From a virus, in the IMG/VR virus record IMGVR_UViG_3300015171_000002, positions 44,529 through 108,528 of that record: a stretch of 64,000 nucleotides of DNA, one strand, 5' to 3'. The stretch's first letter is position 1; every line of letters starts with the position of its first letter. A program made the translations under genes and the position numbers. Below, piece after piece: positions 5,454-39,572 of the stretch. Below the pieces are notes generated by a model that was not told the origin of the DNA, did not search any database, and saw nothing but the letters and a program-made list of their open reading frames with translations.

Positions 5454-5531
5454 GTGGGCGTAATTGCACACGCTTCTAACGTGTACGCGAATAATTGGAT
5501 GTAAATGCGGGTTCAACTCCTGCCGCTCACA
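5454..5531 (+). tRNA. Atypical tRNA-Arg(UCU)-like gene with no D-arm in the normal position
   Basis: Acceptor GTGGGCG/CGCTCAC; stem ACACG/CGTGT with loop CT-TCT-AA; T-arm GCGGG-TTCAACT-CCTGC. Confidence 0.75.
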
Positions 5532-5534
5532 CTA

Positions 5535-5614
5535 TCTAGGTATATTAGAATTGTCTTCGAAACAATACTCGTATAACGGAATGAAAATGTGGGTTCAAAT
5601 CCTACTACCTAGAC
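5535..5614 (+). tRNA. Atypical tRNA-Arg(UCG)-like gene with no D-arm in the normal position
   Basis: Acceptor TCTAGGT/ACCTAGA; ATTGT-CTTCGAA-ACAAT; T-arm GTGGG-TTCAAAT-CCTAC. Confidence 0.75.
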
Positions 5615-5757: not shown

Positions 5758-5830
5758 GTACCTATAGCTCAAATGGCAGAGCAAGAATCTTTTAAATTCG
5801 AGGTTGTGGGATCATGGCCCATTAGGTACA
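5758..5830 (+). tRNA. tRNA-Lys(UUU)
   Basis: GTACCTA/TAGGTAC acceptor, canonical D-arm, loop CTTTTAA; degenerate T-loop. Confidence 0.85.
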
Positions 5831-5832
5831 CT

Positions 5833-6744: not shown

Positions 6745-6816
6745 CAGGGTGAGGGAAAAATGGTAATCCGTTGCGTTTGGGGCGCGAAGAAGCTGGATCG
6801 TTGCCAGCCACCTTGA
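6745..6816 (+). tRNA. tRNA-Pro(UGG)
   Basis: CAGGGTG/CACCTTG; loop TTTGGGG; T-loop ATCGTTG. Confidence 0.8.
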
Positions 6817-7607
6817 CCTATCAGATAATCTAGAATATTCTGAAAATGTATCTAATCATACCAAAATTAGCGGTTATCGTTTTCTCGAAAATAAACGAGG
6901 TTTGTCTACCAGCTTGTCAACGATAGACTATCTTAACTAATCAAAGTGGAAGGATAAACTTTAGATTTTTTATAAGGAATAATATGTTACCAGAACGAAA
7001 ATTAAATGCTCAACAGAACGCTATACTACAACTTTCTGCAATTATAGCAGCCGTACATTTCGAGACAAATGATGCAGTTACTAAACAGTTTATTACTATG
7101 ATGGCTAGTCAAGTAGCGGCAGAATATCAACAGGATAGCCAAGACCCATTAGCTCCATCTTTATTTTTGCCGGTTAAACTAACTGAAGTTTTTAGGGATG
7201 CAATGGCTAAGATGCGAACAGGTTATGAACTTGATTTAAAATCTCAAAAACTGGTGCATACCATATCTAAAAATGGCAAAGGAAAAAATGACTAGACGTT
7301 GTAGTAAATGTGGTTTTGAGTGGGATGGTAAAGATACAGAATGTTATAATTGTGAATCAGAAGAAACTTATATCCTACCAGACAGTATTGATTTAGAAGT
7401 TTCATTCGGTAATATAAAAGATAATAAAATTTTAACTAAGAATTTATTAACTGGTGATAGTTTAAAACGTAAACTAAAAGAAAGAAAATGATATTCTCAA
7501 TTTGTTTTATTTTATTAGGTTGGTTATTTGTTGGTTCTTATAAAATAATGATGGGAATATTAGAGGGAATATTATTTGCAGGTTTATTTGTTTTGAATAG
7601 AATATTC

Positions 7608-31044: not shown

Positions 31045-31129
31045 CGGGTAGTGGTGGAACGGAATACATAACAGACTTAAAATCTGTGGGATTGAAAAAT
31101 CCATGAGAGTTCGAATCTCTCCTGCCCGA
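31045..31129 (+). tRNA. tRNA-Leu(UAA) with long variable arm
   Basis: CGGGTAG/CTGCCCG; ACAGA-CTTAAAA-TCTGT; GAGAG-TTCGAAT-CTCTC. Confidence 0.9.
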
Positions 31130-31155
31130 CTATTTATAATAAAAGGATAAATAAA

Positions 31156-31836
31156 ATGAAATTTTATAAGGTTGGTGGTTTTGTACGTGATCAAATTATG
31201 GGAATAAAATCTCACGATTTAGATTATGCCGTGGAAGCCGAATCTTATGATGAGATGAGAGATTATATTAGTTCTCATGGTAAGATATATCTCGAAACAC
31301 CGGAATTCTACACAATCCGGGGGAAAATGCCTGGAATGGGTGATTGTGATTTTGTTTTATGTCGTAAAGAAAGTGATTATACTGATGGTCGGCATCCTGA
31401 TAAAGTAGAAGTAGGAACTATTCTGGATGATTTGGCTAGACGTGATTTTACTATGAATGCCATTGCTATTGATGAAGATGGTAATTATATTGATCCATTT
31501 GAAGGTATCGCGCATATTAAAAATAAAGCAATTATTTGTGTGGGTGATACTGAAACACAATTAAAACAAGATGCTTTAAGAATGATTCGTGCTGTTCGCC
31601 TTTCTGTAACTAAAAGAATGAATATCGGTTATGAAATTGATCATTTTTTGAGAAATGGTTATAATTCTTTGTTACTGGATAATATTTCAAACGATAGAAT
31701 TAAAGATGAAATAAATAAAATGTGGGAATTCGATCCATTTAATGCCTTTATTGCCATGCGACGTTATAGTACTATGTTTGAATATATTTTCCAAACAAAA
31801 GATATTTGGATGAAAGCGACATTAGAAAAGAGATAA
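31156..31836 (+). CDS. cca: Class II tRNA nucleotidyltransferase (CCA-adding/poly(A) polymerase head domain)
   Basis: VGGFVRD, DLD, DDLARRDFTMNAIA, DPF.G and DALRMIRAVR motifs. Confidence 0.92.
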   Translation: MKFYKVGGFVRDQIMGIKSHDLDYAVEAESYDEMRDYISSHGKIYLETPEFYTIRGKMPGMGDCDFVLCRKESDYTDGRHPDKVEVGTILDDLARRDFTMNAIAIDEDGNYIDPFEGIAHIKNKAIICVGDTETQLKQDALRMIRAVRLSVTKRMNIGYEIDHFLRNGYNSLLLDNISNDRIKDEINKMWEFDPFNAFIAMRRYSTMFEYIFQTKDIWMKATLEKR

Positions 31837-35800: not shown

Positions 35801-37644
35801 ATATAATGATAAAATTTCTGATTTGAAAGTATTTTATCAGACGTATAGTAATTATTTCAATCTGGAACAATTAGAAGCTTTTCGTGCTTATTTTATCGGT
35901 AAGGTAGCGCGGATTAATAAGGCTGATATGTGGGATAAGTGCTATAAAGGCGAAATTCCATTTGCTGAACATAGTAGGGCTGTTACTCTGGAATATATTA
36001 GTTTGAATAATCTTGTAAAAGCTGATGGCCTAGATGAATTTGTAGAGACGGTCTGATATGAATATTTTTGGTTTATTTCAAAAGAAACATAAGCATAAGC
36101 ATATTATTATTCCAATCGAGCAATATAAACCAGTTAAGACATTTACAACTCAAGTAAATTGTCCAAATTGTCGTAATTTTATTAGTTTAAATTTTCCAGT
36201 TGGAACAAATGTTAGACTAGCTCATAAAACTTGTTCTATTTGTGAATATAATTGGGAATAATGAAATGGATAATGTCAGCGTCAAGCATGATAAACTAAG
36301 TTTTGATTTTTTCGGTGTTAATGGTTATTCGAATGATGGAGATAGTTATTCTGTTCGAATTGCTAAAATGAATATACCGCCTGAAAACTGGATAAATCAT
36401 CCACCTTATCATATTCCTAATCCTGATTACAATTATTTTGGTCGTTTGTTTGAGAAGTCACCAGAAATGCTTAAAATGCTTAAAGAATATCTTTATCTAA
36501 TCATGACAATGGATTTACCGCTTACCGAAAAGGAAATTCGTGATTTGATTAAATATATTGAAAAGGGGACAGAATGAATTTACCAGTTGCAGCTATTCTT
36601 GATTTTCTTTTAGTTTTGTTTATTTTCTTTAGGTGGCTATTAGTATTGTATCAATTACTAACTAAATCTATTACACTTGTTGTAGGCAGTTTCGATTTTA
36701 TTGCTTATCTTTTTGTTCTTTTTTGGGCAGTTTCATTACTAATTGGTATTGTCCTAGCAGGAGTAGTAAAATGATGGATGCAATTGAAAAACCGACTAAT
36801 CAGGAATTTATTGATTGGTTTCGTAATATTTGGAGTGAACGTATTATTAATGGTAATCTAAATTCTGATCCATTGGATATTCTTTCTGAGACTGTTACTG
36901 ATATTCTTTGGGGATTTGAAGAATTTGGTGATGTCAAGGATTGGCTAGAATATGGTAGTCTGACTCATCATTCTCGGCGTGGTTATCCGGTAACTAAAAC
37001 GTTAGTCAAAACCGCGATTTATTTGTGGTATAATTGGAGCGAATAAAATGTTAATTATTGAATATGTTCCAGACGAAAATAAAGTAGCTGTAGCTGATGG
37101 AAATGTAGACCGATATGTAGATGATATCCTACGTTTAGGTCTTTTGTCTGGTTATAAGAATTTTATTCATAATGGTGGAGATATCGAACTACAATATTCT
37201 ACTTCTAATATTTTTACTGCCTTTCGAGTAGCAATAAAGGAAGGTCGAATTAGTAGGGTTATTATTCGTTTCAAGTTCAATGGTAAACTAATTGAATATG
37301 ATAAAGATGGTAGGTCGGAAAACTGGCCGGATGGTTTCTTAGATTATGAGCATAAACTATTAGAACGTTTGTTGACAAGAAATAAATAAAATGTTAGAAT
37401 ATCTCGGAATTGATAATTTTAAATCAGTTGGGGATGATGTTTTTGATTTGTTTTTTATTACCGCTGAGAATGAAGCAGAAGCTTTTAATAAAATGCGGAT
37501 TGCTACAGGTTTGGTAGATACTAAATTTGATAAGTATTGTGAACAAAATTTTAGTTTTCAGCTTATTCCAGTCCGCACTAATAAAGAATTAGAATTGGAT
37601 TGTGTTGCATTGGGAGAAATCAGAAGTTCTAGATAATATAATAA

Positions 37645-37729
37645 CGGGCATTATGCACTTTACTCTTATAAGGTAAGCTCATCATAAGGTGCTATGGTTG
37701 CAACGAAAGTTCGATTCTTTCATGCCCGA
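37645..37729 (+). tRNA. Atypical tRNA-Ile(UAU)-like gene with no D-arm in the normal position
   Basis: CGGGCAT/ATGCCCG; TTACT-CTTATAA-GGTAA; GAAAG-TTCGATT-CTTTC; A-CTA trailer like the other tRNAs. Confidence 0.72.
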
Positions 37730-39572
37730 CTATTCAAATATAAAAGGATAATAAAAATGGACGATGATGATAGAATTATTTTAGGCTTACAGAATAGAAT
37801 TCGTAGTCTGGAACATGATTTAGGCGCTAGAAGTCTTTCTGTTAAAATGTATGTGGAACAGATTTGGAGATTAGATTCTTATTATAATCAAGTTAAAGCT
37901 GGAACAATAAAATTCGATTTAGAAGTTTTACATGATTTGATTAAAAATCGTAAATATTATGGTTTCAAATTTTTTGCAAAGGATAAATAAAATGCAATTA
38001 GAAATTAGTCAAGACGATGTTGATAAAGCTAATAGTTTTACTACTCGCTATTGTCCCACAGAATATGCTATGTTACGGGCCGGATATATTAATCCTAATG
38101 TTGGATTTCATTATGCTACAGCCATTTTGAATAATGAACAAAAACATTTCGACTGTTCAGATAGTTTAACTGAACAAATTAATAATTGGTGTCAAGATGA
38201 AACTGGTATTTTTGTACCCGGTATTTATGAATTAATAGAATACGATTAATAATATGACACCCAACCAATTAGAAAAACTTATTCAAGAAATAAAAGATTT
38301 ATGTGTGAAATATAAATGTAATATTGTGCCTGTCACCAGTCGGGAATTTAAAGAAACGACTAATAGTTCTGGGCTACCCGATTTTCAATTAAGTTTAGTG
38401 AATTGGCCGGGAGATTTACAACCAATTGTTTTAGTAAGTTATGTGAAACAAATGATTTCTGACGGTAAGAGATTGAATGTAGAATATAATGGCGATAAAT
38501 GGCGTTCTTTTTAAAGGATAATATGATATGTATCATAAACTAACTTATAAAATTCCGGTAATTGTTCGTGTTGAGGATGAAAATGGAGAAGATAATATTG
38601 ATAGTTCTTTATCTAATTCTGTTGCCGTTTTACAGATTTGTTGTGATGCCTTTAATGATGCTGATGTGGGTCAATATCTGAATATTCCACTAAAATCCTG
38701 TCGTATGGTTTTTCATACGGATACTTTATTAGTAGAATGTTATCTATCCGATAATACTTATAATAACTGGCCGGGTGATGTTTCTAAATTTCTTTTAGAT
38801 GAACTAAATGGACAAATGAGCGATGGTTGGGGAGAAGGATTTGAGCAGTTTAGTTATGATCTTTCTCGTTATCCCGGTAATGATATTGGAGAGGTTTATA
38901 TATCTTGTTGGGGTCATGATGCTGACCAAAAGGTGACATTTCTAGACTATCATCCTACTACTCGCCTAAGGTAAATAATATGATATTTTATAAAACTGAT
39001 GGTACAGCCGAAATTGGTCGTAAAATTTGTAATTGTAAGAATCATGTGGAGCCACATTGGTTATATCTAATCAATAAAGAAAAGAAATTAAACGAATCCT
39101 TTACCAGTGCTGATCGAATTATTAGAGACTTAAATACATTAAAAAATTTCCATAAAGAAATGGAAAAACGTGGTATTCTAGAAATTTTCCGAGGATAAAT
39201 ATAATGTCAAAACGAAATATTGCACTAACACTAGAAAAAAACTATCTAAATGGTTATGATATTTCTGTATTTCAGCGTATCTGTAAAGAGTCTGGTATTG
39301 AAACTGGTCAGTGGACAATGGGATTATCGGAAGAATTACAATCTAGTAACGTTGAAAAATTTGATTATTTTATTATTCTGAATGTAAACGAAAAAGATTT
39401 TGAATTTATTCAAGGTTTATTTGCCGGTCGGTGTCAAGAAAAACCTAAAGTATTTATTATTGGCTTGCTAGGCTGAAAACTCTAACCGGATTCTAACTTG
39501 ACTTCTCACTCGTTGACACTATAATACATACATAGGCGAGACGGAAAACATCTATTTTCGGGAGAAAATAAA

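Follow-up and report, generated by a model that had tools for sequence, protein, structure and literature searches.

A UAU-anticodon gene in a soil phage as a probable divergent member of a rewired class of phage tRNA-Ile and tRNA-Arg genes

Can a gene with an ordinary acceptor stem, an ordinary T-arm and an isoleucine anticodon, and with no D hairpin in the usual place, specify a working tRNA? This question is raised by positions 37645–37729 (plus strand) of the window, the 64,000-nucleotide (nt) stretch of DNA analyzed here, which corresponds to bases 44529–108528 of the 112,017-bp uncultured virus record IMGVR_UViG_3300015171_000002 from a soil metagenome (32% GC). A reading made from the letters alone (the sequence-only reading) had described this locus, hereafter the UAU gene, as an arm-swapped tRNA-like gene resembling two Arg-like genes of the same phage; the acceptor stem, 8-nt linker, D-like hairpin, T-arm and A-CTA trailer that it listed all lie where it placed them. 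We find that the UAU gene is probably a divergent and so far unique member of a class, confined to phages, of rewired genes for tRNA-Ile and tRNA-Arg, in which a helix enclosing the anticodon arm would take the place of the D hairpin. It is placed there by its layout, and shared descent is also probable.

Layout of the UAU gene

The UAU gene reads acceptor–UAU–GCACU–anticodon arm (UAU)–GCUCAUCAUAA–GGUGC–UAUGGUUGCAAC–T-arm–acceptor–A (Table 1), with an 8-nt linker, TATGCACT, between the 5′ acceptor strand and the anticodon arm and a 28-nt connector from the anticodon arm to the T-arm. The 7-bp acceptor stem, the 5-bp T stem and a T-loop of the UUCRANY type are those of an ordinary tRNA, and the anticodon stem pairs at all five positions, one of them G–U. 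The anticodon loop contains the UAU that the sequence-only reading had reported and retains C32, U33, A37 and A38, as in the UAU-bearing gene of the crAss-like phage cr130_1; UAU is therefore encoded in the genome, as in AUA decoding of the Mycoplasma mobile type. The 21–22 designed pairs include no mismatch, in a genome of 32% GC.

No D hairpin lies at positions 10–25, between the acceptor and anticodon arms, where a cloverleaf carries its D-arm. ARAGORN made no call for the gene, either by default or with ps90, and Rfam returned no RF00005 match to it even at E values up to 10; our own scan of the whole 112-kb genome for an acceptor stem plus a T-arm retrieved it along with the two Arg-like genes. 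When the acceptor stem and T-arm were held fixed and the interior was shuffled, an anticodon-type hairpin at the right distance appeared in 0.24% of shuffled interiors, and the complete arrangement, with the hairpin, an enclosing helix of 4 bp or more and a properly spaced GG tail, in 4.5e-5 of them, both under criteria set post hoc. The layout is more than chance, and the earlier judgment that this is a tRNA-like gene and not random decay was borne out.

Rewired Arg and Ile genes in other phages and the fold they share

A degenerate pattern drawn from the two Arg-like genes of the window was the starting query for an Arg family. It matched the complete 171,836-bp phage G001 and ten further metagenome loci (several mutually identical), with one false positive; blastn located Arg-family genes in cultured phages of Streptomyces, Pseudomonas and Alishewanella and in a 735-kb phage, where they are unannotated or labeled tRNA-OTHER or tRNA-Ser. 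The family comprises 17 sequences with the anticodons UCU, UCG and CCU, and its named carriers are phage G001, Pseudomonas phage ventosus, Alishewanella phage Slicko01 and Streptomyces phages. Across these sequences the acceptor, anticodon and T stems show compensatory changes at 15 of 17 pairs, while the two core pairs of helix X, formed between the linker and the segment beyond the anticodon arm, occur as UA (14) or CG (2) and as GC (14), AU (1) or UA (1). Covariance model R1 was built from eight seed sequences, both Arg-like genes of the window among them, and its scores for these two (87.3 bits for the gene at 5454, 84.1 bits for that at 5536) are high by construction.

Several individual Arg-family loci deserve mention. 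The Arg(UCU) gene is labeled tRNA-OTHER in Mildred21 (L020:1501–1575) and tRNA-Ser in Slicko01 (L021:1496–1574). A rewired Arg(CCU) gene for codon AGG lies at L007:8826–8905 (minus strand), with an 8-nt linker, a 23-nt connector and an R1 score of 41.4 bits, on the same contig as a rewired Arg(UCU) gene. Among GTDB genomes, rewired Arg genes were found in only one 10-kb contig of a metagenome-assembled genome (MAG): an Arg(UCU) gene at L027:3918–3991, in an archaeal MAG assigned to Nitrosotalea, with 36% GC and no other tRNA. This may be a mis-binned viral contig or a hint about hosts.

Run against the genome of Streptomyces phage Daubenski, the Arg model returned an uncalled gene with the anticodon GAU. 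From this gene, blastn reached 79 Streptomyces phage records (at least 80% of the query covered), nearly all unannotated, as well as crAss-like Kehishuvirus 'tikkala', cr130_1 and a 462-kb phage; in Streptomyces phage EGole the Ile(GAU) gene is labeled tRNA-Leu (NC_055791.1, 75265–75341). The five distinct Ile sequences share the layout acceptor–UAU–X5′ (3 nt)–C–anticodon arm–WGAAA–X3′ (3 nt)–UAAUYGGUYACAU–T-arm–acceptor–A. The rewired Arg and Ile genes of other phages sit in tRNA clusters and supply anticodons otherwise missing; in phage G001, the sole UCU tRNA among 36 is the rewired gene. Daubenski and Mildred21 carry a further 77-nt element (L019:683–759 and L020:89–165) with a perfect acceptor stem and T-arm and no ARAGORN call, in which an anticodon arm was not found by eye.

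In the Ile family, helix X is paired in 100% of cells, with compensatory changes at two of its three pairs (A–U/C–G and C–G/U–A), whereas the counterpart of the local D-like hairpin shows pairing in 47% of cells and no covariation. Because helix X covaries and the local hairpin does not, these sequences are best described as having a linker/post-anticodon helix that would enclose the anticodon arm as a D-stem-like helix within a three-way junction. The families therefore do not support the arm order of the sequence-only reading, in which the anticodon arm is followed by a D-like hairpin. Geometrically, helix X plus the anticodon stem is the usual stack of D stem on anticodon stem with the strand break shifted to the other side, and we infer that a single-stranded D-loop follows helix X, its GG able to reach the canonical T-loop. 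The same reading had defined the class by U34 anticodons for A-ending codons; Ile-GAU and Arg-CCU members exist, and the class instead follows the amino acid, Arg or Ile.

How well does the UAU gene fit this class? Helix X can form in it as GCACU/GGUGC, the covariation evidence for this helix coming from the families alone. The tail UAUGGUUGCAAC matches the Ile-family tail at 9 of 12 bases with two gaps, and its GG is the presumed partner of the T-loop. Covariance model R2, built from the five foreign Ile genes only and run unfiltered over the whole window, returned the three odd genes as its top three matches; in the UAU gene it placed GCA/UGC in helix X and set the tail against that of the family. 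The earlier claim that the three genes have a non-cloverleaf architecture in common is supported. R1 gave the UAU gene 22.6 bits. With the rewired Ile genes it has in common the 7-bp acceptor stem, canonical T-arm, A73, a linker opening with UAU, an Ile anticodon (UAU in cr130_1), the helix that joins the linker to the segment beyond the anticodon arm and a GGUU-containing single-stranded tail before the T-arm. It differs from them in a helix X of 4–5 bp rather than 3 bp, without the 1-nt spacer before the anticodon stem, in a tail of 12 nt rather than 13–14 nt, and in a T-arm whose sequence is that of its own phage's Leu tRNAs. The rewired Arg genes, two of them in the same genome, likewise have the three-way junction, a covarying enclosing helix and a GG-containing tail (AANGGA); they differ in their Arg anticodons, in another connector and in an A after the GG, at the position of the arginyl-tRNA synthetase (ArgRS) identity element A20, where the Ile genes have U.

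Other ways of accounting for the architecture were set aside. Reordering the modules into a cloverleaf led ARAGORN to call the Arg and Ile genes, but shuffled D segments were also called in 42–74% of trials, so that this procedure does not discriminate. An intron or permuted gene is not indicated: cutting out a segment never yields a cloverleaf, and the acceptor stem is built from the two ends of the gene, followed by a normal trailer. An Arg(UCU) scaffold in which C35 became A was considered as the source, since CAUAAGG is similar to the connector of the Arg genes and is placed there by R1; this origin was ranked below membership in the Ile family once the Ile genes were known. An alternative helix, A9–G11/C39–U41, is a minor possibility.

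Table 1. Positions of the parts of the UAU gene, of associated genes in the window and of rewired tRNA-Ile genes in other phages (window positions unless an accession is given)
Feature	Position	Strand	Observation
Acceptor stem, 5′ strand CGGGCAT	37645–37651	+	7/7 Watson-Crick pairs with ATGCCCG, 37722–37728
Linker start UAU (positions 8–10)	37652–37654	+	Same UAU in 5/5 rewired Ile genes of other phages
Helix X, 5′ strand GCACU	37655–37659	+	Pairs with GGUGC, 37688–37692 (4 Watson-Crick + U–G); centroid fold; R2 aligns GCA/UGC to Ile-family helix X
Anticodon arm, stem TTACT/GGTAA, loop CTTATAA	37660–37676	+	Sequence; anticodon TAT at 37667–37669
Bulge GCUCAUCAUAA, 11 nt, between anticodon stem and helix X 3′ strand	37677–37687	+	5 nt (WGAAA) in Ile family; chief departure from the family
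Helix X, 3′ strand GGUGC	37688–37692	+	Centroid fold, R2 alignment, layout comparison
Relocated D-loop-like tail UAUGGUUGCAAC	37693–37704	+	GG at 37696–37697; aligns with Ile-family tail UAAUYGGUYACAU
T-arm GAAAG/TTCGATT/CTTTC	37705–37721	+	5/5 pairs, canonical T-loop
Acceptor 3′ strand and discriminator A (37729)	37722–37729	+	Stem pairing
CTA trailer and 3′ flank to ATG of next open reading frame	37730–37759	+	ACTAT trailer; flank like that of tRNA-Leu(UAA)
Rewired tRNA-Arg(UCU)	5454–5531	+	Rfam tRNA 31.1 bits with D-arm deleted
Rewired tRNA-Arg(UCG)	5536–5613	+	Rfam 37.5 bits
Ordinary class II tRNA-Leu(UAA)	31045–31130	+	3′ part and flank paralogous to those of the UAU gene
Phage nucleotidyltransferase, CCA-adding type	31156–31835	+	Pfam PolyA_pol head domain, 8.4e-23
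Rewired tRNA-Ile, Streptomyces phage Daubenski	MN444876, 74075–74151		
Rewired tRNA-Ile, crAss-like phage cr130_1	NC_055901, 68445–68522		Anticodon UAU
Rewired tRNA-Ile, uncultured phage	LR756500		

Proposed function and competing explanations

From its sequence, we propose with a probability of about 0.6 that the UAU gene encodes a working rewired tRNA-Ile that reads AUA, is processed via its ordinary acceptor/T minihelix and is finished by the phage CCA enzyme. It would be co-transcribed with the flanking small genes, and RNase P would cut at the acceptor/T minihelix; the CTA trailer would then be removed and CCA added by the phage nucleotidyltransferase, an enzyme that is needed because CCA is not encoded in the phage tRNA genes. 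In the folded RNA, GCACU would pair with GGUGC beyond the anticodon arm in place of a D hairpin, the acceptor stem and T-arm being ordinary, and the strand UAUGGUUGCAAC would carry the D-loop GG and probably dock on the T-loop, restoring the L-shape. Host isoleucyl-tRNA synthetase (IleRS) would charge the molecule via A73 and A35-U36-A37-A38, and the charged tRNA would read AUA. The more specific proposal, that an aminoacylated tRNA-Ile(UAU) decodes AUA from a non-cloverleaf fold with its anticodon arm nested in the D stem and its D-loop moved to the 3′ side, is put forward tentatively, at a little under even odds.

Several observations weigh against this assignment. The bulge has 11 nt, where both families have an invariant 5 nt (WGAAA in Ile, ACGUG in Arg). 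The R2 score of 25.4 bits (E 1.7e-4) compares with 89–96 bits for the seed genes of the model and is 1.5 bits above that of tRNA-Leu(UAA) (23.9 bits), with cloverleaf cross-matches elsewhere of up to 28 bits; because this score is within the cloverleaf range, class membership is not proven by the model alone. The minimum-energy fold has several competitors within about 1.6 kcal/mol, the z-score of the energy is no better than −2.0, and the anticodon stem is weak. No close relative of the UAU gene was found in IMG/VR, JGI metagenomes, GTDB genomes or GenBank phages: blastn against GenBank phages gave no match, nor did three exact or degenerate DNA patterns in IMG/VR and JGI metagenomes, and the flanking route through IMG/VR (upstream and downstream open reading frames, RNA ligase, RecA) gave no useful relatives, with TerL leading to one 6-kb contig. 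The search for homologs, which the sequence-only reading had suggested, thus yielded relatives of the architecture in other phages but none of the gene itself, and with a single sequence selection on it is not measurable. As for decoding, a UAU tRNA is a poor substrate of E. coli (Escherichia coli) IleRS, and on E. coli ribosomes AUA and AUG are not told apart by the M. mobile tRNA-Ile(UAU) in its unmodified form (PMC3575796); given this poor charging and AUG misreading with E. coli parts, function would depend on the host. The origin of the 3′ part also enters here. From the T-arm to the next ATG the gene is 84% identical to the tRNA-Leu(UAA) locus (31045–31158), its interior being unrelated; the 3′ flank is about 84% identical to the flank at 31131–31158, and ATAAAAGGATAA occurs exactly at only two places in the window, the flanks of these two genes. 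The identity points to recombination between tRNA 3′ halves, and a recombined 3′ half could be the mark of a chimeric relic. A plain copy of tRNA-Leu(UAA) was rejected as the origin: the two genes are equal in length, 85 nt, but positions 8–60 match at only about 25% (own count).

A decaying relic—a rewired tRNA gene that once worked, or such a gene fused to the 3′ half of tRNA-Leu(UAA), its product no longer processed or charged—would account for that unrelated interior next to a paralogous 3′ part, for a bulge 6 nt longer than in the family, for the failure of either covariance model to score the gene above the ordinary-tRNA range and for the lack of a known relative. We nevertheless regard it as unlikely, given designed pairs without mismatch in an AT-rich genome, a retained trailer, and an anticodon loop that keeps C32, U33, A37 and A38; the gene also covers the one Ile codon otherwise unserved by phage tRNAs. 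Relative to the Leu(UAA) paralog, both sides have changed at acceptor pair 7–66 (G–C to U–A) and T-stem pair 51–63 (G–C to A–U), and U5–G68 has become C–G; these compensated changes favor maintained pairing over decay. It is improbable that the product is a tRNA-shaped RNA that does not decode, serving as an RNase P/Z processing signal in an early transcript or as a decoy or spare against host tRNA-cleaving defenses. An acceptor/T minihelix alone suffices for RNase P and CCA addition, the gene stands alone among small early open reading frames 22 kb from the main tRNA cluster, and the phage encodes tRNA repair or quality-control proteins (a TROVE/Ro-like protein besides the CCA-type enzyme, with a putative kinase-phosphatase and putative ligases as further candidates), all of which would suit such a role; yet a GG tail and a complete 7-nt anticodon loop retaining U33 and A37 would be superfluous in a processing signal, and the relatives sit in tRNA clusters, where they supply missing anticodons.

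The remaining alternatives accept a working tRNA and differ on its fold or its amino acid. A four-way junction with swapped arms, comprising acceptor, anticodon arm, a true D hairpin and T-arm, starts from the three-pair hairpin UGC-UAUGGUU-GCA that can be drawn at 37690–37702, with a similar one in the Arg(UCG) gene of the window. We consider it quite improbable: beyond the poorly paired, non-covarying equivalent in the Ile family, the hairpin pair 37–49 fails in 2 of 8 Arg-family sequences, whereas the competing linker pair 12–37 holds in 8 of 8 with two double changes, and GUGC cannot pair with both partners simultaneously. Bacterial leucyl-tRNA synthetase (LeuRS) ignores the anticodon, and acceptor pairs 1–4, A73 and the T-arm are common to the UAU gene, tRNA-Leu(UAA) and tRNA-Leu(CAA), so charging with another amino acid, such as Leu, can be envisaged. 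This is very improbable indeed, since the linker UAU and the tail GGUU agree with the Ile family rather than with the Leu genes, and recoding of AUA would harm phage proteins.

Relation to known tRNAs and to the tRNA set of the phage

If the proposed tRNA-Ile assignment is correct, the UAU gene would presumably have its job in common with canonical tRNA-Ile(UAU), namely the reading of AUA independently of TilS. Canonical forms, represented by M. mobile tRNA-Ile2 (PMC3575796) and by genes in the phage clusters L006, L007 and L012, have the same CU-UAU-AA loop and A73 and differ in having a D hairpin at positions 10–25; the UAU gene has none there and is missed by ARAGORN and Rfam. The sequence-only reading was right about the rarity of UAU anticodons in bacteria; in the phage tRNA clusters retrieved, however, tRNA-Ile(UAU) genes with an ordinary cloverleaf are common. 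One UAU tRNA, at L012:5340–5432, is 93 nt long; it combines a normal D-arm with a variable arm of 23 nt (class II-like), and its metagenome contig has a rewired Arg(UCU) gene as well.

Metazoan mitochondrial tRNA-Ser(AGY) (PMC11551756) resembles the UAU gene in lacking a D hairpin between the acceptor and anticodon stems, in its short connector and in its extended anticodon helix. Mitochondrial armless tRNAs, however, have lost the contact between D-loop and T-loop and have reshaped or degenerate T-loops, whereas the UAU gene keeps both a canonical T-loop (TTCGATT) and a GG tail, so that its L-shape is probably restored. According to a 2024 paper, all known bacterial tRNAs are cloverleaf and natural armless tRNAs occur only in mitochondria (PMC11551756). 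No description of a rewired class of phage Arg/Ile tRNAs was found in the searched literature, including full-text searches, and a review of non-canonical tRNAs is silent on phages. New here are a UAU member with an enlarged bulge, the coexistence in a single soil phage of a rewired Ile gene with two rewired Arg genes, and the tie of the class to Arg/Ile identity rather than to U34.

Phage genes with the D stem threaded around the anticodon arm would represent a second natural route to an L-shaped adaptor, in bacterial-type translation, and the rewired fold might let phage tRNAs escape host enzymes that recognize a normal D-arm. The UAU gene would add an AUA reader and, with three rewired genes in one genome, extend this phage-only alternative topology to a third anticodon type; its 11-nt bulge would show that the rewired core tolerates large insertions and help to define the tolerance of the fold. 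Since standard finders and GenBank miss or misname rewired genes (tRNA-OTHER, tRNA-Ser, tRNA-Leu), there is a systematic gap at Arg and Ile in phage tRNA repertoires and in analyses of codon supply.

About 24 ordinary tRNAs are encoded by the phage, and most codon boxes are covered by a U34 species. Arg, His, Ala and the codon AUA lack an ordinary tRNA in this set; the anticodons of the three odd genes are UCU, UCG and UAU. A count over 136 crudely called open reading frames gives AGA and CGA as 46% and 15% of Arg codons and ATA as 29% of Ile codons (620 ATA), so the codons that the sequence-only reading had proposed to count are indeed well used. The UAU gene fills most of a 120-nt gap between same-strand open reading frames at 37391–37636 and 37757–37990. 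The downstream frame has no homolog among 5.8 billion proteins, and promoter and terminator scans near the gene gave no signal above shuffle level. ACTAT stands 3′ of seven tRNA genes in the phage, the UAU gene and six others, and the T stem of the UAU gene is identical to that of tRNA-Leu(UAG) and tRNA-Leu(CAA). At the tRNA-Leu(UAA) locus (31045–31835), the flank common to this gene and the UAU gene runs on into the gene of the CCA-type enzyme; in Streptomyces phage Jollison (L037:1–477), a rewired Ile gene lies 10 nt 3′ of a nucleotidyl transferase gene.

Some ordinary tRNAs of the phage are themselves unusual. Bacterial tRNA-Leu normally has a long variable arm; the tRNAs with the Leu anticodons UAG (14664–14738) and CAA (14748–14822) are 75 nt long and lack one, and only Leu(UAA) is class II. 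The sole CAU tRNA (12263–12338) has a U1–U72 mismatch atop its acceptor stem, a 1–72 mismatch being a trait of bacterial initiator tRNAs, and no GGG/CCC in its anticodon stem. Non-canonical T-loops such as ATCGTTG occur in the Lys-UUU, Pro, Phe and Thr tRNAs (5758–5831, 6745–6818, 15340–15414 and 15726–15799). The nearest cultured relatives of the phage terminase are those of haloarchaeal tailed viruses, at 32% identity.
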